From Cyanobacteria bacterium P01_F01_bin.150 (GTDB lineage Bacteria; Cyanobacteriota; Cyanobacteriia; CAKZMO01), in assembly GCA_039189765.1 (NCBI GenBank), contig JBCCYL010000002.1, positions 96,001 through 160,000 of the forward strand: 64,000 bases of DNA, written 5' to 3'. The notes beneath the pieces were generated by a model. It did no database searches. It worked only from the letters and a program-made list of their open reading frames with translations, and was not told the DNA's origin. Of this stretch, positions 7,311 through 64,000 are shown piece after piece. How positions within the stretch are numbered: position 1 is the first letter of the stretch; the number at the start of each line of letters is the position of its first letter. The translations under genes were made by a program, and so were the position numbers.

Positions 7311-7428
7311 ACAGTCTAATGTAAATCTGATCGATACGAGTGTTTATAATCGTTAGACTTTACTGTTACATATTTCCCCATGTCATGCAGAGTAGACATA
7401 AACATAAATGGGGGCGTTAAAGAACTTT

Positions 7429-8223
7429 CTAAAATATGGTCTTAGTGTGAACTTGTCCATTGAGGTTAACAACGGTAACCGATTGTTCTGGAAGGGACTG
7501 CCAAGTTGCATCCATTAGAGGCTCTGAGGCGATTAGAACGCCTTGCTCTTGTTGCAACCAATAGAGGGTTGGGACTGGCTCTTTGTTGGCCGCACGGCTT
7601 ACAATCAAATGGGTACCGGTACTAAGAACCATATTTGCCCCCACCTTCAAATCTAGGGGTTGAGCGAGTTGAAAGATAAATTGAATCATTTGGCTAAGGG
7701 CGATCGCTAGCGATTCTGGGTCATTTGGCGGTCCCCCCAGCTGGTCTAAAAATTGGAGAATAAGCACAAATAGATGTTCGGAGTCTGTTGTGCCATGAAT
7801 AGATTGGTAAAGGCGATCGCACAACTTTTCTCTGATTGGGCGATATAGGGTTTGACGAAAATCTTCAATGTAGCCATTGTGGATTGCCAATAAAGAACCC
7901 GACTTAAAGGGCTGACAATTACCCAAATCAACTGCTAGGCCAGGAGTGGCGCTGCGAACATAAGCCACCATGCAATGGGAATTTACATATCGGGCTAAAT
8001 CCACTAAGTTGATGTCATTCCAAATGGGCAGAATATTTTTATAGCAGAAGGGCTGTGTCGATTGCTCTGTATGATACCAGCCAATGCCAAAACCATCCGC
8101 ATTCAGCAACCCAGCAGTCATTTCTTGGGGCTGATAGCTTTGAACAATTAAAGAATGGGAAGGTTTATATAATAACTCCTCTAAGGGAAGGGGGACGCCC
8201 AAGTAGGCCATCAATCGACACAT
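7429..8223 (-). CDS. egtC: Class II glutamine amidotransferase, EgtC-like
   Basis: N-terminal MCRL, NADGFGIGWY, VRSATPG, HNG, GTTDSE. Confidence 0.75.
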   Translation of the reverse strand: MCRLMAYLGVPLPLEELLYKPSHSLIVQSYQPQEMTAGLLNADGFGIGWYHTEQSTQPFCYKNILPIWNDINLVDLARYVNSHCMVAYVRSATPGLAVDLGNCQPFKSGSLLAIHNGYIEDFRQTLYRPIREKLCDRLYQSIHGTTDSEHLFVLILQFLDQLGGPPNDPESLAIALSQMIQFIFQLAQPLDLKVGANMVLSTGTHLIVSRAANKEPVPTLYWLQQEQGVLIASEPLMDATWQSLPEQSVTVVNLNGQVHTKTIF

Positions 8224-16448: not shown

Positions 16449-16979
16449 TCAGTAGCCGTTATCGCTCTTTTCGATATAGTCTCGAATGCTATTGAGGTCA
16501 ATGTAGCGATCTGTCGCATTACGTAATTCGCGAGCAATCATGCCTTCTGTTGAAACCACCGTGATATGAGTACTTTTAGAACGGAGCAACTCAATAGCTC
16601 GTTCAAAATCACCATCACCACTAAATAAGATGACTCGGTCATACTGATCAACAGTGTTAAACATATCCACTACAATCTCAATATCCAGGTTTGCTTTTTG
16701 AGAATATCGGCCTGAATTATCGTCGTAATATTCCTTCAGCACTTTAGTCCGTACTGTGTAACCAAGACTGATAAGGGCGTCTCGAAATCCTCGCTGGTCT
16801 TGAGCATCTTTTAATCCCGTATACCAAAATGCATTTATAAGTTGGGTATGGGGACTGCCCGTAAAATATTGCAACACACGCTTGGGATCAAAGAACCAAC
16901 CATTTTTTTGCTGTGCGTAAAACATATTGTTACCGTCTACGAAAATCGAGAGACGAGTAATCAGAGGTCTCAAAACCAT
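16449..16979 (-). CDS. labA: NYN domain protein, LabA family
   Basis: IFVDGNNMFYAQQKNGWFFDP, LFSGDGDF. Confidence 0.75.
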   Translation of the reverse strand: MVLRPLITRLSIFVDGNNMFYAQQKNGWFFDPKRVLQYFTGSPHTQLINAFWYTGLKDAQDQRGFRDALISLGYTVRTKVLKEYYDDNSGRYSQKANLDIEIVVDMFNTVDQYDRVILFSGDGDFERAIELLRSKSTHITVVSTEGMIARELRNATDRYIDLNSIRDYIEKSDNGY

Positions 16980-17700
16980 ATCTTAAAGTTTTTTGTAAGT
17001 GAGAATAATAATATGCAGGCTAGGACACCATTTAATGGTGTAAGACGCTGTTGATAGATAGACGAATAAACATTGAGGTTAATGGTCGCACATCATTGCC
17101 CAAACTTTAGTTAACGTTTAAGCAGATAGTACGGGCATAAAGTGTTCCAACTAGCCTCTATTCGAGTTCACTATGCGGCAAAAACCATCAACCCTATATA
17201 TAAGGGTTTACCTATAGATGACATAGAGCAAGTGAATGTGCTTAAACCCGGCCTTAGGGAAAACCAAGATAAGGTTCTGCAAAAAAGCCAATAAATTAAT
17301 AGAAATAGACTAAAAAACTAGGGAACTAACCTAGCAACTCAACTGAATCACTAGGTAGCAATCGACCGAGTAGCTATTATCATCATTGAACCAGGAAGCA
17401 ATTTGTCTACTACCCTCTGGTCATAACTGTTAGAAATACTAACGATAGTATTAAAACAGGTCAAAACTAAACCATAAAAAAACATAAAGTATATCCTAGT
17501 AGGATCAATATAGATCTGAATATATGGAGACCTTAATTGGCATAAAACGTACACAGTACACATATATACAACCTATTATAGAGCCTCAACCTCGCAATTC
17601 AGAAGATATGCTCATAATGTCTATCCATTATCTCGTAAAGGCTTGATGAAGTCTGAGTCCTTAGTGTCATTGTTCGAGTCAGTTATCTAATTTAGCCATC

Positions 17701-18393
17701 ATGCGTTTTGTATCTGCGATTGAAGATGAATCCGCTACACATGTTTCCTTATCTTCGTTACAGGCTCCTACGGTCCAATCTCCAGCTATTTTGTCTTTAA
17801 TGGAGGCTCATTTCAAGGCTCCGTCTCTACGATTGGGAATTATGGCCTCAGGCTCTGGAAGTAATTTTGAGGCGATCGCCCAGGCTATTGCTCAAAAACA
17901 GCTCAATGCTCAGATCCAGGTGGTCATTTATAACAACCCCGATGCAGGGGTTGTGGAGCGAGCAAAACAATGGGGGATTCCAGCGATATTAATCAACCAT
18001 AGAGATTTTGAGAATCGAGAGAGCTTAGATCAAGAAATTGTAACGACCCTCCAAACCTATCAGGTGGACTGGGTAATTATGGCAGGATGGATGCGATGCG
18101 TTACCGAGATTTTGATTAACGCGTTTCCGAAACGGGTATTAAATATCCATCCCAGCCTTTTGCCCAGTTTTCCAGGGCTTCATGCCGTCAAACAAGCATT
18201 GGATGCTGGGGTCACACTGGCAGGCTGCACAGTACATCACGTCGTGTTGGCAGTGGATAGTGGTCCCATTGTGATGCAGGCGGCGGTTCCCGTCTTGCCC
18301 AACGATACTGAGGAGACCTTGCATAACCGCATTCATAACCAAGAGCACGCTATTTACCCGATGGCGATCGCTTTAGCGGCTGCATCTAGCTAG
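17701..18393 (+). CDS. purN: Phosphoribosylglycinamide formyltransferase
   Basis: ASGSGSNF, NIHPSLLPSFPG, GCTVH, VDSGPI. Confidence 0.95.
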   Translation: MRFVSAIEDESATHVSLSSLQAPTVQSPAILSLMEAHFKAPSLRLGIMASGSGSNFEAIAQAIAQKQLNAQIQVVIYNNPDAGVVERAKQWGIPAILINHRDFENRESLDQEIVTTLQTYQVDWVIMAGWMRCVTEILINAFPKRVLNIHPSLLPSFPGLHAVKQALDAGVTLAGCTVHHVVLAVDSGPIVMQAAVPVLPNDTEETLHNRIHNQEHAIYPMAIALAAASS

Positions 18394-18612
18394 AGTTCAG
18401 GCTGGCTACATTACATTAACCTTGACGATTTTCCAGATACAAACATCCACCAAAAACTTCTGCCAAGTTAGCAGGTATCAGGAGTAGTGATGTTTACGAT
18501 GACTAGATATAGATTGGAGGCATCACAGCGTCACCGCAGACTAGCAATGTCGCTTTTTTCTCAATCACAATCCATAATTTTTACTTATTAAAAATACTGA
18601 AATGATAATTTT

Positions 18613-18652
18613 TGCCCTGAGGGGGGTGACACCCCCCACCCCCCTCAGGGCA
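18613..18652. repeat. GC-rich intergenic inverted repeat
   Basis: TGCCCTGAGGGGGG ... CCCCCCTCAGGGCA perfect 14-bp arms. Confidence 0.7.
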
Positions 18653-18919
18653 TACTATGTTAAGTAGATGCACCCTGATGGTTGGGAGAGTTTCCAAATG
18701 GCTCTCCCTTTTTTTACGTCTATAATATAGTCCGTTTGATCTATGCTTGCGAAGGGGCCTAATCATCGCACTTTTCAATAAGGCTGAACATAAGAGGGAT
18801 TTGTCCTGCTTGAAGCCCAGAGTGAGTACTTGCAGCATCTCAATTTCTGAATATCAGATTTCGCCAAGAAGCGAAAGACTACTAAAATGTAAAAAGTAAG
18901 TCTTTTGTGGGAAGCCTAA

Positions 18920-20416
18920 ATGTTTGACGCCTTATCGGAACGCCTTGAATCTGCCTGGAAAAGCTTGAGAGGTCATGACAAGATCTCTGACTCCAATATT
19001 CAAGATGCGCTGAGAGAGGTTCGACGCGCTTTGCTAGAGGCGGATGTCAACCTACAGGTGGTGAAAGGCTTCATTGCAGATGTGCAAGAAAAGGCTCAGG
19101 GCGCTGATGTTGTCGCAGGAGTACGTCCTGATCAGCAGTTCATCAAAATTGTTTATGACGAGCTGCTGAAACTGATGGGGGAAACTAATGCCCCTCTAGC
19201 CCATGCGGAATCAGCTCCTACCATAGTTTTGATGGCGGGACTGCAAGGAACGGGTAAAACCACCGCATCGGCCAAACTGGCGCTTCATCTCCGCAAGCAG
19301 AATCGTAGTTCTCTACTTGTCGCCACGGACGTTTACCGCCCTGCAGCAATTGATCAGCTACAAACCCTGGGGAAACAGATTAACATCCCGGTCTTTGACA
19401 TGGGGAGCGACGCTAATCCAGTAGAAATTGCTCGTCACGGTATAGAGAAAGCTAAAGCTGACGGCATTGACACAGTGATTATTGATACTGCCGGTCGCTT
19501 GCAGATTGATGCAGACATGATGGGAGAGCTAGCTGAAGTAAAGCGGGTTGCCAAGCCTGACGATGTCTTGCTAGTGGTTGATGCGATGACCGGTCAAGAG
19601 GCTGCCAACCTAACCCATACGTTTCACGACCAAATAGGCATCACTGGCGCTATCCTCACCAAGATGGACGGCGATACCCGAGGCGGAGCAGCCCTCTCCG
19701 TTCGCCAAATTTCAGGCCAACCCATTAAATTTATTGGGGTTGGAGAAAAGGTTGAAGCGCTTCAGCCGTTTTATCCCGATCGTATGGCATCCCGTATTTT
19801 GGGCATGGGGGATGTGCTAACTCTAGTTGAAAAGGCTCAAGAAGAGGTCGATTTTGCTGAAGCTGAGAAAATGCAAGAGAAAATTCTCTCTGCTCAGTTC
19901 GATTTCAACGATTTTCTTAAGCAGAGCCGTCTGATGAAGACCATGGGATCGTTTGGTGGTTTAGCCAAGATGATTCCTGGGATGAATAAGATTTCTGGTG
20001 ACCAGCTAGAAAAAGCAGAAGTGCAGCTTAAGCGGTGCGAGGCAATGATTGGTTCTATGACCGTAGAAGAGCGCCGCAATCCTGAGCTGCTATCTCAGTC
20101 TCCAAGTCGCCGTAAGCGTATCGCGAAGGGGTCAGGACATACCCTAAACGATGTTAGTAAGTTAGTAAGTGATTTTCAGAAGATGCGATCGCTCATGCAA
20201 CAGATGGGCCAGGGTAACTTTGGCATGCCAGGAATGGGCGGTGGTATGCCAGGAATGGGTGGTGGCATGCCGGGAATGGGTGGCCTCGGCAATATGTTTG
20301 GTGGCATGCCAGGGATGGGGGGAGGTGCTCAGCCAGGCTTTAGGGGATATCAAAACCCCATGTCTCGTAAGAAGAAGAAAAAAGCTAAGAAGAAAAAAGG
20401 ATTTGGCAGCCTTTAA
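18920..20416 (+). CDS. ffh: Signal recognition particle protein
   Basis: GLQGTGKTT, DTAGR, TKMDGD; M domain with GMPGMGG tail repeats. Confidence 0.98.
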   Translation: MFDALSERLESAWKSLRGHDKISDSNIQDALREVRRALLEADVNLQVVKGFIADVQEKAQGADVVAGVRPDQQFIKIVYDELLKLMGETNAPLAHAESAPTIVLMAGLQGTGKTTASAKLALHLRKQNRSSLLVATDVYRPAAIDQLQTLGKQINIPVFDMGSDANPVEIARHGIEKAKADGIDTVIIDTAGRLQIDADMMGELAEVKRVAKPDDVLLVVDAMTGQEAANLTHTFHDQIGITGAILTKMDGDTRGGAALSVRQISGQPIKFIGVGEKVEALQPFYPDRMASRILGMGDVLTLVEKAQEEVDFAEAEKMQEKILSAQFDFNDFLKQSRLMKTMGSFGGLAKMIPGMNKISGDQLEKAEVQLKRCEAMIGSMTVEERRNPELLSQSPSRRKRIAKGSGHTLNDVSKLVSDFQKMRSLMQQMGQGNFGMPGMGGGMPGMGGGMPGMGGLGNMFGGMPGMGGGAQPGFRGYQNPMSRKKKKKAKKKKGFGSL

Positions 20417-24948: not shown

Positions 24949-27900
24949 TTAATTAGGCTGAGTTGTATTGTCAGTGTCGTCTTTTTTAAGACCCAATGCC
25001 CATAACTCTCGACCAATGCTCTCGCGATCCTCTATCGGAACAACAGTAGGAGTCGTGCCTCTCGCAGTAAAGAACAGGCGATTTCCGACATTAATAAAGT
25101 CACTTGGATTTGAACCACTGTTGTCTGTTTCATATATCCCATTCGCATTTACTATTGGAACCTCTACTTCCTCACTCTCATCATTAATTTCCGTTGTGGT
25201 CTGTACAATTGGCCGATAGATATCCTCAACCATCTGCGTCCCATCTGCTGTCCCATCACTCTTCCATAGCTCCTGTCCGAATACCCCATCATTAGCGGAG
25301 AAGTATAAAACGCCATCAATTGCAATAAAGCTTTCCAATGATGATGAACTATCCGGATTGATATTTTTCACCAATAAAGGATCGTGGAAATTGGCACTAT
25401 CGGCAGGATTAATATTGATTGACCAGAGTTCTTTATCATTACTCGCATCCCGTGCTGCAAACATTAGCTTATCACCAAGAACTGTTAGCTCTTCTATAAG
25501 AGGAGAACTGTCTCCTGCTAAGTCTGTAATCCGTCTGGCCACATCATCATTGGTATCAACCGTTCCATTTTGATCGACGTACCATAGTTCAATTTGCTTC
25601 TCGCTGTTTATCTCGCTTTCAGCCAAGAAGTAAAGCGTTTGACTGTTGTCGGGTGCTGTCACTTGGAGGAAAGAACCATCGTTAAATCCAGTAATCACTT
25701 CAGAGGTTGCTAGAGTTTGGATATTATCGGGGACCGTTTGATCCTTCTGAATCCGCTTTAAGGCATTATCGTCTGTAAAATACAGCGTATCACCCACTGC
25801 AGTTAGATTCTCCGGTGAAGCAACAGACGTCAATAATATTTCCGCACCATCTTTGACGTCTGTTTCCTTGGAGTCATAACGGTACAGCGACTTACTTTTA
25901 TCTAGGAAATAGAGAATATCATCGACTACCGTTAACCCACTAAGCGTGTTGTTTATCGAGAGGTCGTCATCTGTTGTTACATTTGTTTTGACAGTGAGAG
26001 TAGAGCCGGTGACTCCCCATAACTCAGAACCTTTTGCCGTTGTTACTTGTACTGCCTGATCATTATCCTTGCCAAATGATGTAGCAGTGAAATAAAGAGT
26101 ATTGTCCACAACTGTAAACTCTGAAGCGGTAAAATCAAATACGGCATCATTTTCGGCATCAGTTGCCCCGTCTCCTGCAAGCATCTCTAAACCAGATGCA
26201 CCTTCTGTCCAAAGCGCCTGCTTACCGTTGATCGTCCCCAAGAAGTAAAGCTGGTTATTCACCACCGACAAGTTAGAAATAGATTCAAAGTCTTGGGGAT
26301 TTTCAAAGGCCACTTTGACAGTAGTTTCTTCAGAGCTATCCTCACTGGCTCCACTGGACTTCCAAATCGCTTCTCCGTTACCATCGTTGGCGACAAAAAA
26401 TACATCAGTGTCAATACTAACCATTTTATCGGCCTTAACTCCGTCTCCAAAGCCTGCGTTAATATCCTTGGTGAGCGCAGGAACGTCATTTAGAGGGAAT
26501 AGGGCCAACTCCAAGTGATAGTAAGACGCATTATCTGGATCAGGAGTATTGGTACCTGTGAAGGGTGCAGGATAGACATTGAGGTAATAGGTTCCAGCCT
26601 CTAAGTTCCCCCCTGCTGATTCCACTAAATCTCCTGGTTTGGCAGATAGACTCACTGACTCAGTGGTTATTGGGTTTGTACCAACTTGTCTAAGTAACTC
26701 CACATCTAGATTACTATCTATCGTCCCTTCGATATCAGGATCAAATATATCTACCAAGTCAACGCCAAGGTAGCTTTTTTCATCTAAGACAATTTTGTAA
26801 TAATCACTTGGGTCCTCTCCTCCAACCCATAGTGCCTCATCGGGATCGTCACCAAAGATGACTCTATTTGTGTAGGTTGTATCAACCAAGGCATCAAGAG
26901 CCTCCTGGGGCAACGTTCTTGCTTCAGCAAGGGTATCACCGGCCTCAAAACTATCTGCCTGTTCTGGAATGGCGGCTAGATTTAATGTGTAGTCTTTGGA
27001 TACGATTCCTGCACTAGCGGCTTCCACCTTGAGTAAGTAGGAGCCTGCGGCCAAATCAGTGGAAAAGTTTTCCGCTGGAGTGATAATTTCATCGCCTATC
27101 CCAACACCAGGATTCTGGGGTAAAAGCTCTATCGCAGAGCCATCTTGGCTCAAGATGGACATGTTGAGATCGCCCGCTAAATCGGTGAGGGTAAAGCGAA
27201 TTTCAGAATCACGGGAAAGTTCAAAGGCAAAGTAATCGACTGGATCGTCAGCATCAATTGAGAAGGGAGCATCGCTAAAATTCGCATGATTGTTATCAAG
27301 GAGGGTGGACCTGAAGCTTAGAAAAGGCAGTTGGTCAGCTGTTGCGGGCGTGTCATTATCATCTCGTGATAGAGCAGATCCGGTAATAGAATAATTGCTT
27401 TCAGTCCCCGCGAGAGGCTGAAAAACATGTAAATAGTAGTTCCCAGCTTCTAAGGTTTCCGAAAAGGTTTCGCTGGTCGTTCCTCCATTGTCAGATGTCT
27501 GGACTAGAGCATTATTGCTGTCTAATAATTGAACATCAATGTCTGCCGTTAAATTACCAATGCTCAGATCGACGTTTGCCCGACTCGCTAATGAAAAGGA
27601 ATAATAGTCAGCAGTATCGGAATCGCTGATAGAAAAGGGTTCAGAGCCTGATGGTAATCCGGTTAGATCCGCAGCCGTGTATGTCTTAGACGTTTCGGAT
27701 AAAGTTAACCCTAACGCTGTCTGAAATGTTTCATTCCCATCTGCCACAACAACTGGCGTAGGGGTTACTGACGGAGTTGGCGTAGCTACAGTAGGGGTTA
27801 CTGACGGGGTTGGCGTAGCTACAGTAGGGGTTACTGACGGGGTTGGCGTAGCTACAGTAGGGGTTACTGACGGGGTTGGCGTTACCGATGGCGTAGGAGT

Positions 27901-28398
27901 AAGGTCAGGCGTAGCCTCGATTTCCGTGCTGGCTACATCAATCCTGTACTTCACTTTATTTTTTTTACTGGCTCCTTTGTTGGGTCTAACCCGAATAAAG
28001 TATTCACCTGCTTCTAGGGATTGAATAATGCTTTCATCTTTTTTGCCACCCCTTTTAGAGATGGCAAGTCGAGTCAGGCTTCTGTTGAAATGCTTTTTAA
28101 ATTTACTTTGCAGCTTTAATTTCTTACTAAAAGGGTTGGTAAAAAGATCACTGAACTCTCTTCTTTTAATTTTATTGAAAGAATTTTTAGGGCCAGCTTC
28201 TTTCCGCTGATAAAGCTCAACGTCCACGTTGCTGCTAAGGTCTGTCAACGATAAATCGATGTTACTGCTTTTCCCCAGGGAGAAAGTGTACAAATCAGTT
28301 AGGTCTTTTTTCCCGACCCTATCTTTATTGCTGAAACTTTCACCAGATGATGAGAATACGATATCCGTTGCTTTTTTAAGCGAATGATCCTTCGGCAT
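24949..28398 (-). CDS. Large acidic surface/secreted-type protein with PPC-like domains and ELWxxDGT repeats
   Basis: Repeated D(Y)Y.F.L...LEAGxYY units, Thr/Pro linker, GQELWKSDGTADGT-type repeats. Confidence 0.75.
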   Translation of the reverse strand: MPKDHSLKKATDIVFSSSGESFSNKDRVGKKDLTDLYTFSLGKSSNIDLSLTDLSSNVDVELYQRKEAGPKNSFNKIKRREFSDLFTNPFSKKLKLQSKFKKHFNRSLTRLAISKRGGKKDESIIQSLEAGEYFIRVRPNKGASKKNKVKYRIDVASTEIEATPDLTPTPSVTPTPSVTPTVATPTPSVTPTVATPTPSVTPTVATPTPSVTPTPVVVADGNETFQTALGLTLSETSKTYTAADLTGLPSGSEPFSISDSDTADYYSFSLASRANVDLSIGNLTADIDVQLLDSNNALVQTSDNGGTTSETFSETLEAGNYYLHVFQPLAGTESNYSITGSALSRDDNDTPATADQLPFLSFRSTLLDNNHANFSDAPFSIDADDPVDYFAFELSRDSEIRFTLTDLAGDLNMSILSQDGSAIELLPQNPGVGIGDEIITPAENFSTDLAAGSYLLKVEAASAGIVSKDYTLNLAAIPEQADSFEAGDTLAEARTLPQEALDALVDTTYTNRVIFGDDPDEALWVGGEDPSDYYKIVLDEKSYLGVDLVDIFDPDIEGTIDSNLDVELLRQVGTNPITTESVSLSAKPGDLVESAGGNLEAGTYYLNVYPAPFTGTNTPDPDNASYYHLELALFPLNDVPALTKDINAGFGDGVKADKMVSIDTDVFFVANDGNGEAIWKSSGASEDSSEETTVKVAFENPQDFESISNLSVVNNQLYFLGTINGKQALWTEGASGLEMLAGDGATDAENDAVFDFTASEFTVVDNTLYFTATSFGKDNDQAVQVTTAKGSELWGVTGSTLTVKTNVTTDDDLSINNTLSGLTVVDDILYFLDKSKSLYRYDSKETDVKDGAEILLTSVASPENLTAVGDTLYFTDDNALKRIQKDQTVPDNIQTLATSEVITGFNDGSFLQVTAPDNSQTLYFLAESEINSEKQIELWYVDQNGTVDTNDDVARRITDLAGDSSPLIEELTVLGDKLMFAARDASNDKELWSININPADSANFHDPLLVKNINPDSSSSLESFIAIDGVLYFSANDGVFGQELWKSDGTADGTQMVEDIYRPIVQTTTEINDESEEVEVPIVNANGIYETDNSGSNPSDFINVGNRLFFTARGTTPTVVPIEDRESIGRELWALGLKKDDTDNTTQPN
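27757..27900 (-). repeat. 33-bp coding tandem repeat (VATPTPSVTPT)
   Basis: About 3 near-identical copies plus partial copies. Confidence 0.85.
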
Positions 28399-28708: not shown

Positions 28709-29195
28709 TGCTATCCACAAAGAGTCCGATCATCGGCTTATTCTTTAAGCTGGGATTAAGCTGGGATTAAGCTAACAGTGCTATGAGGTATGGAGCGTAC
28801 TACAACACTGTCTTGAAATACAGGCCCGATCCTTAACATGTAATTGCGAAACGGATGCTTAACCCACGATGGTCTCTGTTGCGATCGCCACCTTGACTAA
28901 GATATTTTTTGTTGAATTAGCAAGTGATTTTACGGATCGTCATTTGAAGTTACTGTAAAGCGTCAGATAATGCTGCAAAGGAGCGATAAAGTGGTGTGAG
29001 AGGCTACCTTCAATCCACTTGACGTTATCATCGTTACGTTGTGGATTAAGAGAGTAGGGGTGCTTGCTCAAGTTATTTCTTCACTGCATGTCCTAAATAT
29101 TTTCCAGAATAGGGCTTATGCGGGGTTGAAGGGATTGAGGGAACATAACAGATTGTGCATTAGTGTTGTTGGCGCTGTGTAAGGAGTCCGTAAAG

Positions 29196-30953
29196 ATGCT
29201 TCGTAGGCATACTGCATTCATTGGAATTATCTGTGGTTTAGTTGGTTGGCTGGGAGAAAGTTCTATTGCCCAGGCGGATACTCCTTTGACTCACGCAGAT
29301 ATCCAGCAAATTCGCAATCAGGTTGACTTTATTCCAGAGAATGGCTCTGCTCGTCTTGCTGAACTCTCAGATCGGCTGATTCCAGGAGATGCCCTTTCAA
29401 CTCGTCAGTCTTCGTTCGCTGAGCTGGAGTTCAATGATGGAACTTTAGCTCGTGTTGGTGAATTTGTACTCTTTCGCTTTCAACCCAACACTCGCACTGT
29501 TGATCTGGAAAATGGCACGTTGTTACTCCTTATTCCACCGGATCAAGGAACGACTAATTTGCGTACACCCAATGCAAATGCAGGAATTAGAGGTTCTGGG
29601 CTATTTGTTCGCTACATTGAAGGCGATACTCCCGAGCAGTCTACCACTCTGATTGGAGCCTTAACGACCAGCGGTATTACTGTTGCCAATACAACTGAGT
29701 CTCTTGTTTGGAATGATGAGAGCGATTCATTTACATCTGTGGAGGACAGTCACTCAACTCCCACCGTCGTTGAGTTGGAAGCTGGGCATATGGCCGTTAT
29801 TGTCGGCAATAGTACACCCCAAGTCTTTTCATTTGAACTTGACCTGTTCTATCAAACCAGTACCTTGGTGTCGGGGTTGGACTTAGATGGCGATGGCGAT
29901 ACCTCAGTGGCAATTTGGAGAGAGGAACCCCGTGATGGCGAACATCTCCTCTCTGTCCCAGCTACCAGCACCAACGGTGAACGGGATGCGATCGCCCTTG
30001 TTAGGGAAGAAACAAAAGACGGTCTTTTTGCCCAAGCCGGAACCCTTACTACTCCCTACATTGATAATCCTCCATTTGTATACGGTGGTGACTGGCAGCC
30101 CTCGACTGCTTGGTTGCCATTAGCTCCTCAGCAAAATCCAAGTTACGGTGAAGCTGTCGATAATATGATTGATGCCGCAGAGCTGCAAACTCCTCAATCG
30201 AATCTGGGAACAGTGCCTTCTGGGGAGAGAATTGCGCCTCCTCCCATTGAGCAACCACATATTGTAGGACCCATGCCAACGGTTGGGCCAAGGCCAGATC
30301 GAGGAATAGATATTCCACCTCCACTAACCCCTCCAACGATACCATCCCCACCCTCTGTTCCATCTCCACAACCCCCTACTGCATTCCCTCCCCAGGCCCC
30401 ATTGCCAAGTCCCTTACCCCCTACAACCCCAATCTTTCAGCCAACGCCGAGTCCAATGCCTCCAGAGCCAACGCCGAGTCCAATGCCTCCAGAACCAACG
30501 CCGAGCCCAATGCCTCCAGAGCCAGCGCCGAGTCCAATGCCTCCAGAACCAACGCCGAGTCCGATGCCTCCAGAACCAACGCCGAGTCCAGAACCCCCTG
30601 AGCCAACTCCAAATCCTGGCCCCTTGCCTGACCCACCCACTATCCCATTTCCACAAGGCAATCCTGAAGCCCCAGATAGCGATCCTCCTGAGATGACACC
30701 AAGTCCACCTGAAGGGACCAACTCTCCTCCTCCCTCAGAGGCTCAAAGTCCGAATGAAACCCAACAGCCGGAACAACCTAATACTCCACCCGAACCCAGT
30801 ACTCCTTCGATAGATGATGGGCAAGTTACACAGCAACCGGATTTTGATATATTTGGGGGCGATTCTGGAGAAGGGGCATCAGACGATGGTGATAATATCC
30901 CATCTGGTCCTATGCTGCCATCTGAAGGAAGTATTGACGTCAACCGTGAGTAA
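29196..30953 (+). CDS. FecR-domain protein with proline-rich C-terminus
   Basis: Signal-like N-terminus; AELEFNDGTLARVG...TPNANAGIRGS FecR-like motif; PEPTPSPMP repeats. Confidence 0.8.
   Translation: MLRRHTAFIGIICGLVGWLGESSIAQADTPLTHADIQQIRNQVDFIPENGSARLAELSDRLIPGDALSTRQSSFAELEFNDGTLARVGEFVLFRFQPNTRTVDLENGTLLLLIPPDQGTTNLRTPNANAGIRGSGLFVRYIEGDTPEQSTTLIGALTTSGITVANTTESLVWNDESDSFTSVEDSHSTPTVVELEAGHMAVIVGNSTPQVFSFELDLFYQTSTLVSGLDLDGDGDTSVAIWREEPRDGEHLLSVPATSTNGERDAIALVREETKDGLFAQAGTLTTPYIDNPPFVYGGDWQPSTAWLPLAPQQNPSYGEAVDNMIDAAELQTPQSNLGTVPSGERIAPPPIEQPHIVGPMPTVGPRPDRGIDIPPPLTPPTIPSPPSVPSPQPPTAFPPQAPLPSPLPPTTPIFQPTPSPMPPEPTPSPMPPEPTPSPMPPEPAPSPMPPEPTPSPMPPEPTPSPEPPEPTPNPGPLPDPPTIPFPQGNPEAPDSDPPEMTPSPPEGTNSPPPSEAQSPNETQQPEQPNTPPEPSTPSIDDGQVTQQPDFDIFGGDSGEGASDDGDNIPSGPMLPSEGSIDVNRE
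30441..30610 (+). repeat. 27-bp coding tandem repeat (PTPSPMPPE)
   Basis: About 6 copies of CCAACGCCGAGTCCAATGCCTCCAGAG-like unit. Confidence 0.85.
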
Positions 30954-48479: not shown

Positions 48480-49424
48480 ATGAGATCAAGGTTTTCCTCA
48501 GTGTCAAAAAAAATACAGAGTATTATCGGTCGATACATTCGGGTCAAGCCATTGCTCGCGTCATTTTCCATTGGTGCTACCGTAGCTTTTGCCCCTGTGT
48601 TTTTTTCTAGAGCATTGCAAGTTGGTGATAGTGGAGCAGGAGTTACGGAAGTTCAAGTGGCTCTGACGAATGCAGGGTATTATTCTGGGCCTATTTCTGG
48701 CTTTTATGGGGAGCTTACACAGGCTGCAATATTCAGGTATCAATTAGATAGAGGTCTATTTGTAGACGGAATAGCTGGCCCCAACACTTTATCCTCGCTT
48801 GGTTTGGATGATTTGGCTGAGAATAGTCGAATTGTTGGAGACTCTTCTAGTATTGATCGCAATAGAGTTGAAGACTTGCAAAGTAGATTACAAGTTGCAG
48901 GCTTCTACAGTGGTCCTATTGATGGTGAATATGGTTCGGCAACACGAGATGCTGTTTTCCAATTTGCAGAAAGGTATCTATTTACTATTCAAGAAGTAGA
49001 AAGAGCGCTTGGGTTGCCTGAAAGTGGTATCTATAGTGAAGAGATAAGGGATGCAATCATATCTTTTCAGATAGAAGAAGGTCTAGTCGCTGATGGTATT
49101 GTTGGTCCTGTAACCCGTGAGCGATTAGCTGCAAGATTAGCAGGTTTTAATCAATCTATTGTCAATGGCTACAGACCTCAAAGCAAATCTTTAGAGGATG
49201 AAATTCGTGAGTTTCAAGAAATGAACCGCCTAGAAGTTGATGGAATTATTGGCCGAGCAACCTTTGGCAGTCTCATCGAGCAAATTACTCGTTTTTCTGC
49301 AAAATCAGAGGAGCGGTTCCCTTCTTGTAACCCTGGCATAGCGTCGGGCAATTCATCTAACGGTGTTAAAGCCTTTTGCCTTTTCCAAGCAGTTATGCGA
49401 GAGGGGGTGCTGGGTATAAGTTAA
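48480..49424 (+). CDS. Peptidoglycan-binding domain protein
   Basis: Several PG_binding_1-like units (DGIAGPNT, DGIVGPVT, DGIIGRAT). Confidence 0.8.
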   Translation: MRSRFSSVSKKIQSIIGRYIRVKPLLASFSIGATVAFAPVFFSRALQVGDSGAGVTEVQVALTNAGYYSGPISGFYGELTQAAIFRYQLDRGLFVDGIAGPNTLSSLGLDDLAENSRIVGDSSSIDRNRVEDLQSRLQVAGFYSGPIDGEYGSATRDAVFQFAERYLFTIQEVERALGLPESGIYSEEIRDAIISFQIEEGLVADGIVGPVTRERLAARLAGFNQSIVNGYRPQSKSLEDEIREFQEMNRLEVDGIIGRATFGSLIEQITRFSAKSEERFPSCNPGIASGNSSNGVKAFCLFQAVMREGVLGIS

Positions 49425-49475: not shown

Positions 49476-49571
49476 GGTCTTAGGACGCATTTTGTACTGA
49501 TTAATGATGTGAAGAGTCGAATAGGTCTTAGGACGCATTTTGCACTGATTAATGATGTGAAGAGTCGAATA
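49476..49571. repeat. 48-bp direct tandem duplication
   Basis: GGTCTTAGGACGCATTTTG(T/C)ACTGATTAATGATGTGAAGAGTCGAATA twice, one mismatch. Confidence 0.9.
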
Positions 49572-57918: not shown

Positions 57919-60854
57919 GCACAGAGCAGTTTGTCGCAGCATTGAGTGAGTGTGACCTCAATCCCACAGAGATCGCGGATATTCTCTGGCTAGCGCTGCG
58001 TCAACTGGATTCTGCTGAGCAATTTGGTGAGGATAAGACTAATGATGGCCAGGAGGATGGGGCTAGAGGCGATGATGGCCAGGAGGATGGGGCTGGAGAC
58101 GATGATGGCCAGGAGGATGAGGCTGGAGACGATGATGGCCAGGAGGATGAGGCTGGAGACGATGATAGCCAGGAGGATGGGGCTGAAGACGATGATGGCC
58201 AAAACGCTGTAGAAGATGGCGCGGCTGGTGGTGATCTTCCCCCTGGCGATGACGATGAAGAAGAGAGCGGAGAAGAAACCGGGGACGAGGATAAGGATGA
58301 CGGCTCTGACCAACAGTCGTCCTTTGATATTGCTGCACAGGATGCTTCGGGGGTCTTGCCAGAAAAAGCGGTCCCCATTTCGGTTCCTGATGCAGGTTTT
58401 CTAGAGGAAACGTTACCGCTGGTGCGGGCCTTGCGACCCATCCTAAAGCAAATTGCCTCTGAGACCGTTAGCTATGTGGATGAGGCGGCAACGGTGGATC
58501 GGATTGCGGAGACAAATATCTGGTCGCCGGTGCTGCAACCGGATTATGAACCGTGGTTTGATGTAGCCTTTGTAATCGATAGCAGTGCTTCCATGCATTT
58601 ATGGGAGCGGTTGATTCAGGATATTCAGCGGTTGTTGCGCTGCTATGGGTCATTTCGAGACTTTCGAGTTTGGCAGTTGAAGGTGACAGAAGGCCAGGTG
58701 GGTATTTGTGCGGTGCCGGATCAGGTTATGCGCCATCCAAGGGCGTTGCTTGCGCCGGATGGTCGTCGGCTGACGTTGGTGTTTAGTGACTGTACGGCGG
58801 AATATTGGTGGGATGGAACGCTTCAGCCGATGCTGGCCCTGTGGGGAGAGTCCATGCCGACATCAATTTGGCAGGTGCTGCCCGATTGGATGTGGAAGCG
58901 TACGGCGTTGGGGGTTGGGGAGTATGTGGCGATTCGAAATCGGATTCCTGGGGCGACAAATGGAGAGCTAAACCCGATCTTTTTATCATTACGTCCATCG
59001 ATTTTATCGCCAGCGGAGCCGTCTCAGGCGGCAGATAGTTTGGTTGGGGCTTCACCAGCTAAGCCGATTTGTGTGCCTGTGATTACTACGGAGTCCGAGT
59101 CCCTGAGTGCTTGGAGTCGAATGGTGGCAGGGGATCGGCGGTCGTCAACGCCGGGGTTTGTGTTGCCGGAGAGGGGCTGGGAGAAGGAGCGGCCAACGCC
59201 ATCAGATGATTTACAAGGGGATGCCGATCAGCAAGAGGTTGCAGACCAACAGTTGGAGCAATTTCGCTTACGAGCGACCCCTGAGGCCCGTCGATTGGCG
59301 GCGTTATTATCGGCTGCGCCGGTGATTACCTTGCCGATTATGCGGTTGATTCGAGCGTCCATGTTGTCTGGCACGTCTCCATTGCCGGTGGCTGAGGTCT
59401 TTTTAGGCGGGTTGTTAAAGCGGACATCCACCCCAGGGCAGACGCCAGATAAGCCGATAGATACTGAGCTGGTCCAGTATGATTTGCCGATTGAAACGCG
59501 GAATCGCCTGTTGGATGTGTTGCCAAAGGTGGAGGCGATTGAGGTGATCGAGGCGGTGTCCCAACATATTTCTGAGCAGTTGGGGCTGACTCTGATGGAT
59601 TTTCGGGCATTGCTGTTATCTCTTGACTTAAAACAGGAGGCGGATCAGTATGACCTAAAAGCGTTTGCCCGTGTGACGGCCCAGATTTTACGAAAGTTGG
59701 GGAAGGAGTATGCGGCCTTAGCGGACCAATTTGAGGTTCCTCTGGAGCCTGATATCCCTCGGACACAGAAATGGTTGGATCTGCCCCTGGAGGAGTTTGA
59801 GCACGAATCGGCTAGGCTTGTGGCTTTGCCTAGTGAGCCGAGGGCGATCGCCCTTACCATAGTTACGTTAAGCATTCAGCCAGACTATGCTGCGGGGCTG
59901 GAAGAGGTGGAAGACCGTCAGGCTGAAGTTGTGACGCTGGTGGTTGACGAAGCAGAGCAACCATCAGTATTTGATCAGTTAGAACCGTTTCCAATTCAGA
60001 TTGCAACGGTTGAACGTCAAGGGTCTGAGTGGGTGGTTAACTATACCGAATCAGAGGCCGATCGCTATATTGAGACCTTGCCAGGGGGAATTTCTTTGGA
60101 ATTAGCAAGGATTCCATCTGGGGGCTTTATGATGGGGGCACCAGAGGATGAACCAGAGCGCCATGGGCGGGAAACTCAGCATCGAGTGACGATCGCTTAT
60201 GACTTTTTGATGGGGCGCTATCCCGTGACTCAGGCTCAGTGGCGGGTGGTTGCATCCTCCCTGCCTCAGATTGTTCGGAATCTAAAACCAGCCCCATCTA
60301 AATTTAAAGAGGAGAAGCGTCCGGTTGAACGAGTCAGTTGGCATGAGGCGATAGAGTTTTGTAATCGCCTTAATCGCTATTTTGAGGGGCGCTCTATCCC
60401 GGAGGGGTACGAATATCGCTTACCGAGCGAAATTGAATGGGAATATGCCTGTCGTGCAGAAACCACTACTCCCTTTTATTTTGGGCCAATGATTACGACC
60501 GAGGTAGCAAATTATAGCGGTAGCTCCTATGACGATGGACCTACTGGAAAAAGGCGAGGAGAAACCACCCCAGTTACCGAGTTTAACCATGCCAATCAAT
60601 TTGGCCTATCGGATATGCATGGCAATGTTTGGGAATGGTGCTTAGATGAGTGGTGGCATCAGAATTACAGGGGTGCCACCCTCGATGGCAGTACGTGGCT
60701 AGAGAACACCCCACAAAGTAATAATAGGCATGTTAGGCGTGGCGGGTCTTGGATCTCTCGTCCGAGGTACTGTCGGTCTGCCTATCGTCTCCACGACCAC
60801 TCCGACCTTCGCTCCGACTCTCTTGGTTTTCGGGTTGTTCTCGCCCCTCAATGA
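57915..60854 (+). CDS. vWA (SAV_2336-like) protein with C-terminal FGE-sulfatase/CLec-fold domain
   Basis: EIADILWLA, VDEAATV, MIDAS DSSAS, VFSDC; C-terminal YRLPSEIEWEYACRA, DMHGNVWEW, RGGSW...GFRVV; ATGA overlap with MoxR stop. Confidence 0.88.
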   Translation: MSTEQFVAALSECDLNPTEIADILWLALRQLDSAEQFGEDKTNDGQEDGARGDDGQEDGAGDDDGQEDEAGDDDGQEDEAGDDDSQEDGAEDDDGQNAVEDGAAGGDLPPGDDDEEESGEETGDEDKDDGSDQQSSFDIAAQDASGVLPEKAVPISVPDAGFLEETLPLVRALRPILKQIASETVSYVDEAATVDRIAETNIWSPVLQPDYEPWFDVAFVIDSSASMHLWERLIQDIQRLLRCYGSFRDFRVWQLKVTEGQVGICAVPDQVMRHPRALLAPDGRRLTLVFSDCTAEYWWDGTLQPMLALWGESMPTSIWQVLPDWMWKRTALGVGEYVAIRNRIPGATNGELNPIFLSLRPSILSPAEPSQAADSLVGASPAKPICVPVITTESESLSAWSRMVAGDRRSSTPGFVLPERGWEKERPTPSDDLQGDADQQEVADQQLEQFRLRATPEARRLAALLSAAPVITLPIMRLIRASMLSGTSPLPVAEVFLGGLLKRTSTPGQTPDKPIDTELVQYDLPIETRNRLLDVLPKVEAIEVIEAVSQHISEQLGLTLMDFRALLLSLDLKQEADQYDLKAFARVTAQILRKLGKEYAALADQFEVPLEPDIPRTQKWLDLPLEEFEHESARLVALPSEPRAIALTIVTLSIQPDYAAGLEEVEDRQAEVVTLVVDEAEQPSVFDQLEPFPIQIATVERQGSEWVVNYTESEADRYIETLPGGISLELARIPSGGFMMGAPEDEPERHGRETQHRVTIAYDFLMGRYPVTQAQWRVVASSLPQIVRNLKPAPSKFKEEKRPVERVSWHEAIEFCNRLNRYFEGRSIPEGYEYRLPSEIEWEYACRAETTTPFYFGPMITTEVANYSGSSYDDGPTGKRRGETTPVTEFNHANQFGLSDMHGNVWEWCLDEWWHQNYRGATLDGSTWLENTPQSNNRHVRRGGSWISRPRYCRSAYRLHDHSDLRSDSLGFRVVLAPQ
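58041..58201 (+). repeat. 30-bp coding tandem repeat (DDGQEDGAGD), about 5.3 copies
   Basis: GATGATGGCCAGGAGGATG(G/A)GGCTGGAGAC units. Confidence 0.9.
60738..60854 (+). other. Putative DGR variable region VR-A
   Basis: 117-bp scaffold shared with the other FGE 3' ends; differences mainly at codon positions 1-2 of NNC/NNT codons. Confidence 0.75.
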
Positions 60855-60925: not shown

Positions 60926-61762
60926 ATGGCGACATCCTCCAGTACGGCTCCTAGGAAAATTCGGGAAGAACGTGAGACGACGACGTTTCGGTTTGGGCAA
61001 GAGCGGTTGAATGATGAGGTTCTGCTGAATTTGGTGCGGATTCTGGCTGGGGGTTTCATTATGGGGTCGCCAGAGGGAGAAGAGGGGCGTTCTGATGCTG
61101 AAGGTCCTCAGCGCTTGGTGTCAGTGTCGGAGTTCTGGATGGGGCAGTATCCCGTGACTCAGCAAGAATGGCGGATTGTGGCTGGATATACCAAGGTTGA
61201 ACGAGATATGGAGCTTGACCCATCTCATTTTAAGGGAGGCCGTCGTCCGGTCGAGAGAGTATCCTGGGATGATGCGGTGGAGTTTTGTCAACGCCTCTCG
61301 CAGCATACAGGCCGTAACTACCGCTTACCTTCGGAAGCTGAATGGGAATATGCCTGTCGGGCGGAAACTAAGACCCCCTTTCATTTGGGTCTAACCCTTT
61401 CAGCCAAATACTCTAACTACGACGCCAGGGAAGTGTATGGTCTTGGGACACAGGGAGAATATCGAAGGGGAACTGTGGATGTAGATCACTTTCAGGTGAC
61501 CAATAACTTTGGATTGGTCGGGATGCATGGCAATGTGTGGGAATGGTGCCAGGACCACTGGCATGAAAGCTATAAGGGTGCCCCCCTCAATGGTAGTGCA
61601 TGGATGGAGAACACCTCACATAGTAAGAATAGGGACTGCGTATTTCGTGGCGGGGCTTGGTTAACTCGTCCGAGAGACTGTCGGTCTGCCTTTCGTGGCC
61701 ACAATCTTCCCGCCTATCGCCGCCGCAATCTCGGTTTTCGGGTAGTTCTCGCCCCCCAATGA
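60926..61762 (+). CDS. Stand-alone FGE-sulfatase/CLec-fold protein (putative DGR target; VR 61646-61762)
   Basis: FIMGS, YPVTQ, YRLPSEAEWEYACRA, MHGNVWEW, RGGAW...GFRVVLAPQ. Confidence 0.9.
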   Translation: MATSSSTAPRKIREERETTTFRFGQERLNDEVLLNLVRILAGGFIMGSPEGEEGRSDAEGPQRLVSVSEFWMGQYPVTQQEWRIVAGYTKVERDMELDPSHFKGGRRPVERVSWDDAVEFCQRLSQHTGRNYRLPSEAEWEYACRAETKTPFHLGLTLSAKYSNYDAREVYGLGTQGEYRRGTVDVDHFQVTNNFGLVGMHGNVWEWCQDHWHESYKGAPLNGSAWMENTSHSKNRDCVFRGGAWLTRPRDCRSAFRGHNLPAYRRRNLGFRVVLAPQ

Positions 61763-61799
61763 CTCCTTTGCTTTTTCTTTTTTGTCTTTTTGCCTTTGC

Positions 61800-61858
61800 C
61801 CCGGTGCCCAGACTCTGGCTCCCGGAGCATTCCCAGCCAGAGTCTGGGAATCAGGGGG
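61800..61858. repeat. REP-like palindromic repeat, short copy
   Basis: GGTGCCCAGACTCTGGCT ... CATTCCCAGCCAGAGTCTGGGAAT. Confidence 0.65.
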
Positions 61859-61878
61859 ATCAGAGGGGCGGCTGAGGA

Positions 61879-62007
61879 TCAGGCATCAAGCAAGTCAAAC
61901 AGAATCTGCACCAGTTTAGGAGCGCTAAAAATTGGAATCCATTTGGTGGTTGTGCAGGTGACAAAGTGGGGCTGGTTGCCCACAGTCCGATATTGAGAAC
62001 GATCCAT
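61879..62007 (-). pseudogene. Truncated REP-associated tyrosine transposase (RAYT) N-terminal fragment
   Basis: MDRSQYRTVGNQPHFVTCTTTKWIPIFSAPKLVQILFDLL resembles RAYT N-termini (HF.TCT...W.P.F); stops before the HUH motif; flanked by REP-like repeats. Confidence 0.65.
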
Positions 62008-62099
62008 ACTGAAGATTAAATAATGTGGTCTTAACGTTCCCAATTGAATTGGAAGATTGCATACTGAAAGGCAGATATGTTCGCATTCCTCCAGTCCAC

Positions 62100-62210
62100 C
62101 CTGGTGCCCAGACTCCGGCTGGGTGCAATGGACGAGACTCTGGCTCGTCTGCCTTTGTTTTTGGAGCCGGAGTCTCCAAGAGGATTCCCAGCTAGAGTCT
62201 GGGAATGAGG
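62100..62210. repeat. REP-like palindromic repeat, long copy
   Basis: GGTGCCCAGACTCCGGCTGGG...GAGACTCTGGCTC...GAGCCGGAGTCTC...TTCCCAGCTAGAGTCTGGGAAT nested inverted repeats. Confidence 0.65.
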
Positions 62211-62248
62211 TGTGTAAGAGTTGTAAGTTGATTGGAGTATTCCCTTCA

Positions 62249-63100
62249 ATGGTTGTTTTCATCCCCAAAAAACGAACGCACACCGACCAGCGCTTTTTTG
62301 AAGCCTTGGGGAATAACCAACGATTGGAAATGGTGTTAATTCAGGAGGGAACCTTTACGATGGGATCTCCTGATAATGAGGAAAAACGCAGAGATGCGGA
62401 AGGTCCACAGCGTGAGGTAACGGTTTCAACTTTTCTGATGGGCCGTTATCCCGTGACCCAATCCCAGTGGCGGCAAGTGTCTAAATTTGACCCCGTTGAC
62501 CCGGATATTGAATTTCCCCCTAATCCATCTCGCTTCAAGAATAAGCAAGATAGCGATCATCGTCCGGTGGAGCAGGTGAATTGGCATCAGGCCAATGAGT
62601 TCTGTGCTCGCCTCAATCAGTTTCTTGAATCCCGCTCCAGCACTCCATTGAATCGAGCCTATCGCTTACCGTCCGAAGCAGAGTGGGAATATGCTTGTCG
62701 AGCTGGAACTACCACTCCTTTTTATTGCGGCGAAACCATCTCCACAGACGTCGCCAATTATGATGGCAACTACACCTACGGTAGAGGGCCAAAAGGCCGA
62801 TATCGAGAAGAAACTACCCCTGTCGGCTCTTTGGAGTCTGGCAATTCCTGGGGACCGTGTGATATGCATGGCAATGTTTGGGAATGGTGCCAAGACCACT
62901 GGCATGAAAATTACAAGTATGCCCCCCTCGATGGCAGTGCATGGCTGGAGAACACCCCACAAAGTGAGAATAGGCGGGTGAACCGTGGCGGGTCTTGGCT
63001 CGCTCGTCCATGGTTCTGTCGGTCTGCCTGTCGCAACCGCTACCACCCCGACGGTCGCGACGCCTATCTTGGTTTTCGTGTTGTTCTCGCCCCCCAATGA
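62249..63100 (+). CDS. Stand-alone FGE-sulfatase/CLec-fold protein (putative DGR target; VR 62984-63100)
   Basis: Likely start MVVFIPKKR after GGAG; FTMGS, YRLPSEAEWEYACRA, RGGSW...GFRVVLAPQ. Confidence 0.9.
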   Translation: MVVFIPKKRTHTDQRFFEALGNNQRLEMVLIQEGTFTMGSPDNEEKRRDAEGPQREVTVSTFLMGRYPVTQSQWRQVSKFDPVDPDIEFPPNPSRFKNKQDSDHRPVEQVNWHQANEFCARLNQFLESRSSTPLNRAYRLPSEAEWEYACRAGTTTPFYCGETISTDVANYDGNYTYGRGPKGRYREETTPVGSLESGNSWGPCDMHGNVWEWCQDHWHENYKYAPLDGSAWLENTPQSENRRVNRGGSWLARPWFCRSACRNRYHPDGRDAYLGFRVVLAPQ

Positions 63101-63206: not shown

Positions 63207-64000
63207 ATGGTTTCCTCCCCTCCCACCGAATCCAATCCCAAATGCCATATTGACCGAGAACCGATTGAGGTGATATCGGTTCAGCAGCCGTTAAATAACG
63301 ACGTGAGTTTGGTCTTGGTGCAGATTCCAGAGGGGGATTTTATGATGGGGTCCCCAGAAGATGAACTCGAACGAAGCGATGCAGAAGGGCCGCAGCACCC
63401 GGTGCATATTCAGGAATTTTGGATGGGGCAATATCCCGTAACCCAGGCAGAATGGCGCATTGTGGCCAGCTATCGCAAAGTAAACCATGACTTAGCGGCT
63501 GCCCCCTCCGAATTCAAAGGAGATCGATTGCCCGTCGAGAACGTGTCTTGGGATGATGCGGTGGAGTTTTGTCAGCGCCTCTCCCAAAACACCGGATTGA
63601 ACTATCGCCTCCCCACCGAAGCCGAATGGGAATACGCCTGTCGAGCTAAAACCACAACCCCCTTCCATTTTGGCAAAACCATCACCACTGAGTATGCCAA
63701 CTATCGAGGAACCGATGATGAGTATGGAAATTCTGGTTCCTATGGGGGTGGCCCCAAAGGGGGCTATCGAGAGGAAACAACTTCTGTAGGCTCCTTTGAG
63801 GTCACTAACCACTTTGGCCTTGCCGATATGCACGGCAATGTGTGGGAGTGGTGCCAGGACCACTGGCATGACAACTATAAGGATGCCCCCTCCGATGGCA
63901 GTGCTTGGCTGGGCAACACCCCACAAAGTATTAATATGCGTGTAATTCGTGGCGGGTCTTGGCTCGATCGTCCATGGTACTGTCGGTCTGCCTATCGTGG
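63207..64000 (+). CDS. Stand-alone FGE-sulfatase/CLec-fold protein, truncated by window end (VR begins 63948)
   Basis: Manual translation MVSSPPTESNPK...FMMGSPEDE...YRLPTEAEWEYACRA...DMHGNVWEW...RGGSWLDRPWYCRSAYR; not in the ORF track because no stop lies in the window. Confidence 0.9.
   Translation, partial: MVSSPPTESNPKCHIDREPIEVISVQQPLNNDVSLVLVQIPEGDFMMGSPEDELERSDAEGPQHPVHIQEFWMGQYPVTQAEWRIVASYRKVNHDLAAAPSEFKGDRLPVENVSWDDAVEFCQRLSQNTGLNYRLPTEAEWEYACRAKTTTPFHFGKTITTEYANYRGTDDEYGNSGSYGGGPKGGYREETTSVGSFEVTNHFGLADMHGNVWEWCQDHWHDNYKDAPSDGSAWLGNTPQSINMRVIRGGSWLDRPWYCRSAYR

Follow-up and report, generated by a model that had tools for sequence, protein, structure and literature searches.

Spare first-strand motifs in the vWA protein of a cyanobacterial VMAP-type conflict system and the possible docking of stand-alone FGE proteins that lack this strand

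Introduction

Here we report that the vWA-FGE protein of a cyanobacterial conflict system carries, in the linker ahead of its C-terminal FGE/FGS domain, four copies of a short strand-like motif (M1 to M4), the last of which is predicted to form the first strand (strand A) of a beta-hairpin in cis, with the other three appearing as spares. The gene lies in a 64,000-nucleotide (nt) stretch of the genome of Cyanobacteria bacterium P01_F01_bin.150 (GenBank assembly GCA_039189765.1, contig JBCCYL010000002.1, positions 96,001 to 160,000), which we call the window and in whose numbering coordinates are given unless another locus is named (Table 1). Downstream of it lie three genes for small stand-alone, or solo, FGE proteins (FGE1 to FGE3) that begin with the second strand of the hairpin (strand B), and complex prediction lays the spare motif M3 on FGE1 at the site that the missing strand would occupy. 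We judge the chances to be slightly better than even that each solo FGS protein uses one spare motif as its docking site and so restores the hairpin in trans.

Ternary vWA-MoxR systems of the VMAP type, including fusions of the vWA component to an FGS domain, were described by Kaur, Burroughs, Iyer and Aravind (eLife 2020; PMC7159879). They note that vWA components with an FGS domain are found almost exclusively in cyanobacteria and that this domain is usually linked to a diversity-generating retroelement (DGR), and they propose that the vWA domain captures a partner peptide and that MoxR remodels the complex.

Results

The four segments that a preliminary description of this DNA had picked out ahead of the FGE domain were all located as quoted, within residues 625-700 of the 979-residue protein. 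Inside this single protein their likeness is marginal: the best four non-overlapping 12-mers in residues 623-702 are the earlier set moved by one residue, with a BLOSUM62 sum-of-pairs score of 62 against 40 +/- 10.5 for shuffled sequence (6 of 150 shuffles equal or exceed it), and the register originally given scores 36, a value that 94 of 150 shuffles reach. A homologue search with residues 150-725 (best 120 of 124 matching proteins) recovered relatives whose linkers carry the tandem motifs in clearer form, namely FPLxxFEYEVAEF, PPLExFEFIDAQL, FPPPLQTEEFTIVTFE and LExFEFTVATL, and the four repeats share the family-level consensus LxxFEFxVATL. In a MAFFT alignment the four motifs of the window fall in the same columns as those of the relatives. 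M4 is conserved in 59 of 60 rows of the alignment of homologues. When a matrix built from M4 only was run over the linkers of 56 proteins, in each case the 130 residues preceding M4, it returned 69 extra matches (score at least 3), as against 1.1 expected by shuffling.

A first iterated matrix had taken in LRSFAxVTAxILR, a conserved helix of the vWA C-terminal extension, and its counts are treated as secondary; the cleaned matrix was rebuilt from linkers trimmed after the vWA core and assigned one motif to 3, two to 17, three to 27 and four to 22 of 69 homologues. Judged from these sequence comparisons, the repeat is real and conserved at the level of the family, and M2 and M3 of the window are its most degenerate copies. 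An M4 matrix derived from the relatives scores the window's own motifs at 26.8 (M4), 5.2 (M1) and -8.7 (M3), with M2 outside the top 12 matches in the protein; the cleaned matrix gives M1 a score of 16.2.

The role of M4 is indicated by an AlphaFold2 (AF2) model of residues 606-979 (60 aligned rows), which has a mean predicted local distance difference test score (pLDDT) of 81. M4 is modelled as a strand (construct residues 85-97) adjoining a second strand at construct residues 100-116, an arrangement that fits a beta-hairpin of strands A and B placed ahead of the core FGE domain, with block-mean pLDDT of 88-97 across construct residues 81-130. Construct residues 1-31 (M1 included), 40-43 and 62-72 have pLDDT below 50; M2 (construct residues 42-45, with a pLDDT of about 52) and M3 (below 50) are both modelled as short strands. 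In a Foldseek search this model matched PvdO, TvpA and FGEs. The statement in the preliminary description that cyanobacterial FGE domains often begin with an L..F.FEV.TV strand holds for multi-domain FGE proteins, and several longer multidomain relatives of FGE1 carry a cis strand of the form FxFEVVTV..G.

That the three solo FGE proteins begin past the position of the motif, as had also been noticed, was borne out by alignment, which runs from strand B on with nothing opposite strand A. Among 120 relatives of FGE1 listed, the most frequent distances from the start to the IPxGxFxMG motif are 30 (31 proteins), 38 (16), 37 (15) and 39 residues (10), and the usual distance of 30-39 residues is too short to accommodate strand A. 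Across the window and nine related loci, none of 19 FGE-matching open reading frames (ORFs) outside the vWA gene, read stop to stop, contains a motif (score at least 6); the 19 include a 133-residue fragment in locus L012 that resembles a DGR template repeat (TR). The possibility that a strand A lies concealed ahead of the solo genes was rejected, there being no in-frame motif; a six-frame scan of the three spacers gave a single weak match (6.9), out of frame with FGE1. For FGE2 the longer TTG-started frame from 62057 looks non-coding, and a relative, P0173, begins at the methionine equivalent to the ATG in Table 1.

The spacer between FGE1 and FGE2 (61763-62197) is unusually long, at 435 nt. 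Two 47-nt copies with an internal palindrome, 81% alike, lie at 61819-61865 and 62174-62220, and the TTG-started frame of FGE2 passes through the second of them.

Complex prediction was run for a single motif/FGE pair set, FGE1 with linker residues 618-688, a construct that holds M1 to M3 without M4. The interaction prediction score from aligned errors (ipSAE) was 0.91 in all three runs, and the best of three controls reached 0.00; the score mark applied was attained by solved complexes in 116 of 157 cases and by mismatched pairs in 2 of 215, rates that are approximate here, where our own alignments were supplied. The runs share at least 90% of their contacts, with partner pLDDT of at least 59. 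In the confident interface, residues 10-27 of FGE1 together with core residues (33, 36, 38, 71, 128-131, 152-162, 173-174, 190-196 and 275-278) meet the M3 stretch of the linker, residues 658-659 and 661-680 (numbered 53-54 and 56-75 in the construct; residues 661-680 correspond to nt 59895-59954). The strands run antiparallel, with closest FGE1/vWA pairs 19-670, 21-667/668, 23-665-667 and 25-663, and with FGE1 mapped onto the vWA protein by alignment, and on the assumption of a symmetric two-residue turn in the cis hairpin, we infer that the register of M3 on FGE1 would differ from that of M4 in cis by no more than about one residue. The multimer check suggested in the preliminary description thus came out positive, in the form of a predicted FGE1/M3 interface with the scores given above, for the one of three motif/FGE pairs that was modelled. 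The model supports binding in that M3 is predicted to fit the strand-A site of FGE1, which is a statement about fit and not about binding in the cell.

The same model could be read in favour of a role for the motifs inside the vWA-MoxR machine, as strands exchanged between subunits, as a switch competing with M4 or as a peptide captured by vWA and MoxR. A strand-B site is what M3 fits in the model, and strand B of the vWA protein itself would offer one; the motifs are acidic and lie within the low-confidence linker; and peptide capture by vWA with remodelling by MoxR has been proposed (Kaur et al. 2020). We regard this role as quite improbable, since M4 holds the cis site at high confidence while M2 and M3 stay low, and since it leaves unexplained both the missing strand A of the solo FGEs and the way in which motif number tracks gene number.

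This tracking was followed in related loci, whose ORFs were classified with hidden Markov models from our own alignments. Among the genome-contig matches listed (at least 619 stretches) a single related locus was confirmed, in Leptothoe kymatousa (L001), and tblastn with the vWA core against PLSDB plasmids gave 16 cyanobacterial loci (L002-L016). Each of the ten loci with a vWA-FGE protein (the window, L001, L002, L006, L007, L008, L012, L014, L015 and L016) has one or more small FGE genes close by. None of the seven vWA loci without an FGE domain on the vWA protein (L003, L004, L005, L009, L010, L011 and L013) has a small FGE gene, and in none of their vWA proteins does the cleaned matrix detect a motif after the vWA core; the sole FGE protein of L011 is 720 residues long and encoded 4 kb from the vWA gene. 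Counted by eye, the solo FGE genes equal the motifs minus one in all ten vWA-FGE loci: four motifs accompany three genes in L001 and L002 and at least three in the window, where the number is a lower bound; three motifs accompany two genes in L006 and L008; and two accompany one in L007, L012, L014, L015 and L016. Counting blind with the cleaned matrix left 7 (threshold 2), 8 (threshold 4) or 6 (threshold 6) of the ten loci in agreement with the rule (Spearman 0.54-0.69, naive p 0.03-0.11).

Two features of individual loci may be recorded here. L007 (11689-14625) and L015 (11692-14547) contain, between the second motif and strand B, a segment of ~90 residues, possibly a helix-turn-helix by eye; because this segment separates motif from strand B, the proteins would have either a cis hairpin with an inserted domain or an FGE domain of their own that is served in a trans-like manner. 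L001 and L002, the two closest related loci, have one of their three solo FGE genes upstream of the VMAP gene (4867-5685 and 7028-7828, respectively), with a small minus-strand gene between the two; in the window all three lie downstream.

A wider sample was obtained by tblastn with FGE1 against plasmids, which added 11 loci (L017-L027). L017 is a different MoxR-linked system that fits the rule, its 562-residue FGE protein having two motifs and being accompanied by one solo FGE. The loci L020, L022, L023, L025, L026 and L027 also fit: each encodes a single FGE protein, which has its own strand A in cis, and none has a solo FGE or a donor-bearing neighbour; three of these six were classed by eye, as the matrix, which is tuned to the vWA subfamily, misses the FxFxVVTVD form and canonical cis strands such as those of L023, L026 and L027. 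L018 is ambiguous. In total, 11 of the 13 loci with a solo FGE that lacks strand A have a neighbour bearing spare motifs. In L017 a direct IEIKETH duplication is found between the two motifs (18158-19843, minus strand), which hints that spare motifs can arise through small tandem duplications.

The locus in the window is a VMAP-type vWA-MoxR ternary conflict system. The VMAP component matches VMAP-C (PF20028) at 53.5 bits against a cut-off of 27 and is assigned by PADLOC to PDC-M60C with a PN-superfamily effector, its N-terminal effector being a domain of the nucleoside-phosphorylase family; the MoxR gene adjoins, with its 3' end overlapping the start codon of the vWA gene; the vWA-FGE protein is of SAV_2336 type, matching the NCBIfam model SAV_2336_NTERM over residues 84-557 (368 bits, cut-off 200); and the variable C-terminal domain of the vWA component is here an FGS domain, which matches the Pfam model FGE-sulfatase (PF03781) over residues 732-975 at 3e-45. 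A Pfam scan of the 979-residue protein reported no vWA model, and the PADLOC library gave no system name for the vWA or FGE proteins. Assignment of the FGE proteins to an enzyme family (equivalog) is unsupported, with PvdO scores of 125-144 bits against a cut-off of 500 and scores for GldK, EgtB, SenA and OvoA also well under their cut-offs. The N-terminal linker of the vWA protein contains an acidic array of DDGQEDGAG-type decapeptides, encoded by a 30-nt tandem repeat in six overlapping copies (58012-58231).

Table 1. Features of the conflict locus, with nucleotide positions in the window
Feature	Position (nt)	Residues	Strand	Basis or remark
VMAP component, 655 aa	54714..56681		+	Pfam: PNP_UDP_1 1.3e-26 (aa 6-243); VMAP-C 4e-14 (aa 440-617)
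MoxR-type AAA+ ATPase, 420 aa	56656..57918		+	Pfam: AAA_5 7.2e-09
vWA-FGE protein, 979 aa	57915..60854		+	SAV_2336 N-terminal domain, motif-bearing linker, C-terminal FGE/FGS domain
Motif M1, spare strand-A-like repeat	59787..59822	625-636	+	Aligns with M1 of relatives
Motif M2, spare repeat, degenerate in this protein	59838..59873	642-653	+	Same columns as M2 of relatives
Motif M3, spare repeat	59907..59942	665-676	+	Laid on FGE1 in the complex model
Motif M4, predicted strand A of cis beta-hairpin	59979..60014	689-700	+	
Predicted strand B of cis hairpin	60027..60077	705-721	+	AF2 strand, construct residues 100-116
FGE/FGS (C-type-lectin-fold) domain of vWA protein	60108..60839		+	Pfam; Foldseek PvdO 5hha, TvpA 2y3c
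Variable-region (VR)-like 3' end of vWA-FGE gene	60615..60854		+	Repeat families D1, D5, D6
FGE1, 278 aa, without strand A	60926..61762		+	Strand-B equivalent aa 10-27 (nt 60953-61006)
FGE2, without strand A	62198..63100		+	Pfam; probable ATG start at 62198
FGE3, without strand A	63207..63998		+	Cut by window end; 285-aa database form is P0132
VR-like equivalents	61520-61762, 62861-63100, 63825-63997		+	One repeat family across four FGE ORFs

The nature of the VMAP component bears on another use of the motifs, as cleavage or recognition sites for a peptidase of the system that would release the FGE head. Trypsin-like VMAP components do occur in L006, L007 and L008; the window, L001 and L002, however, have a nucleosidase-type VMAP and no peptidase and yet carry the most motifs, and evidence of cleavage sites was not found. 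We set the idea aside because the locus lacks a peptidase, and consider it highly improbable.

The 3' ends of the FGE genes carry signs of DGR-type variation. In those of the vWA gene, FGE1 and FGE2 most of the codons that vary do so at their first two positions, the third staying constant, and the variable codons are interspersed with invariant ones, in a comparison that is between paralogues and not between a VR and its TR; FGE3 belongs to the same repeat family, shortened by the window end. By their codons, the 3' ends of the three complete copies show the pattern expected of DGR targets. No TR-like copy was found among the four VR-like copies in the window, where the other ORFs were not screened for reverse transcriptase (RT) or Avd domains; the contig extends past the window end. 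Avd and RT genes are present in L007, L008 and L016, and L012 has an RT gene with an ORF in the position of Avd; we take DGR-mediated diversification to be probable for all heads, the cis FGS domain and the solo proteins. Immediately following the RT genes of L012 and L021 are short asparagine-rich ORF fragments (16942-17340 and 14930-15166, respectively) whose match to the FGE profile is confined to its last ~40 positions; these are probably the DGR template repeats of the two plasmids.

Elsewhere in the window we observed a 27-nt tandem repeat in six copies (30412-30627, within ORF 29163-30953), a 33-nt tandem repeat in three copies (27758-27882, within the minus-strand ORF 24949-28398) and a 48-nt tandem duplication with 98% identity (49476-49571) immediately downstream of ORF 48480-49424.

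Discussion

The arrangement that we favour would work as follows. FGS domains of this family follow a predicted hairpin of strand A and then strand B, the vWA protein having one such hairpin complete, from M4 and its own strand B, and three extra strand-A-like motifs, M1 to M3, upstream of it in an otherwise disordered linker. Each solo FGS starts at strand B, with no strand A of its own, and a spare motif would pair antiparallel with this strand B and pack on the core of the solo FGS, such that one vWA subunit could display its own receptor head together with up to three separately encoded ones. M1 and M2 would bind FGE2 and FGE3, and binding would take place in cells; from the scheme of Kaur et al., ligand binding by any head might then be passed to vWA-MoxR and the nucleosidase-type VMAP effector. 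A fuller version, a multi-headed receptor with one spare strand per DGR-diversified FGS protein and each type of motif specific for one paralogue, is possible, but we consider it less likely than not.

Several observations weigh against docking. FGE1 modelled alone (72 aligned rows) has a mean pLDDT of 92 and a predicted TM-score (pTM) of 0.90, with residues 11-22 as coil and 23-27 as a short strand, and covers PvdO (template modelling score, TM, 0.75/0.80) and TvpA (0.73/0.73); by these model measures the solo protein appears to be a complete FGE fold with no core element missing, which counts against a strict reading of the solo FGEs as incomplete folds. Nor does the FGE fold need the hairpin, because there are FGE domains without it in L011 and L019, both of which have a HEAT-repeat FGE protein showing neither strand A nor strand B. 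In two loci no donor for the solo FGE was seen over about 12 kb: in L024 the protein is an orphan, and in L021 its neighbours are Avd, RT, insertion sequences and an FGE truncated at its 5' end. M2 and M3 of the window went undetected by both motif matrices. The by-eye motif counts were made with knowledge of the gene counts, and in the blind count the window breaks the rule, with two motifs detected against at least three solo genes, as L008 also does; the correlation between motif and gene number that the preliminary description anticipated accordingly stands by eye in all ten loci and blind in six to eight, but fails blind in the window itself. Relatedness sorts the ten loci into about five groups, none with internal variation (effective n about 5-6), so that the p-values overstate the case. 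Finally, the complex score may stem from what the model has learned of the cis hairpin in relatives.

Many of these points would be accommodated if the spare motifs were relics or low-constraint duplicates, the solo FGEs free-standing, DGR-diversified binders and the counts a product of shared ancestry, and the confident fold of FGE1 and its cover of solved structures, the degeneracy of M2 and M3 with the marginal similarity inside the protein, the small number of lineages and the solo FGEs without a donor all favour such an account. We nevertheless think it unlikely, given that position and sequence of the motifs are conserved across relatives that are 33-73% identical in the vWA core (residues 150-622), that the motifs are absent from all seven vWA proteins without FGE, that strand A is retained in cis by those FGE proteins that have no donor-bearing neighbour, and that the complex prediction is specific, with controls at 0.00. 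The earlier inference, that the spare strands serve as docking sites on a scaffold, therefore survives in part: M4 as strand A of a cis hairpin, the absence of this strand from the solo FGEs, the conservation of M1 to M3 as spares, the FGE1/M3 model and the counts in most related loci speak for it, and the confident fold of FGE1 alone speaks against it. On present results the observation is confirmed and docking is partly supported, the support being computational.

The system, the vWA-FGS fusion, its beta extension and the link to DGRs are already known from Kaur et al. (PMC7159879), and the accessible sections of that paper make no mention of tandem spare first strands, of solo FGS genes without strand A or of docking. 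Nor did the open-access literature, as represented by the accessible text of sources including PMC7159879, PMC8195603, PMC7517822 and PMC12642450, yield any account of extra copies of the strand, of solo FGS proteins lacking it or of docking between them. Docking of strand-less solo FGS proteins on spare strands would be a novelty within a known VMAP/vWA-MoxR system. The effector-associated domains (EADs) described by Kaur et al. (PMC7159879) similarly couple separately encoded components to a core through matching adaptor pieces, but an EAD is an entire homotypic domain that both partners carry, whereas the adaptor proposed here would be a single hairpin split between two proteins.

Two further comparisons help to place the proposal. 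TvpA of Treponema denticola (2y3c) has the same fold as FGE1 (TM 0.73), and the proteins described here show C-terminal DGR-type variation; Avd and RT genes occur in related loci, and in the window no TR was found. To our knowledge TvpA is a single protein for which no donor strand has been described. In donor-strand complementation of chaperone-usher pilus subunits, too, the missing element of a fold comes as a beta-strand from another protein, but those subunits have a different fold with no homology, and the acceptor domain here is predicted to be stable by itself. The proteins of the window belong neither to the donor-strand pilus family nor to the EAD family.

Many DGR and conflict loci of cyanobacteria have small FGE-fold genes beside them, and the open-access literature that we searched offers no explanation of how these genes connect to an output. 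If docking proves correct, the split-hairpin rule would provide a mechanism, assigning each solo FGE its scaffold and predicting one head in cis and N in trans. It would also show how a single vWA-MoxR machine can use several independently hypermutated receptors. On the fuller version, the very common cyanobacterial solo FGEs of 270-290 residues would not be free proteins but receptor heads that can detach and that depend on a signalling scaffold for their donor strand, making up a modular hypervariable receptor array that feeds one defence machine.

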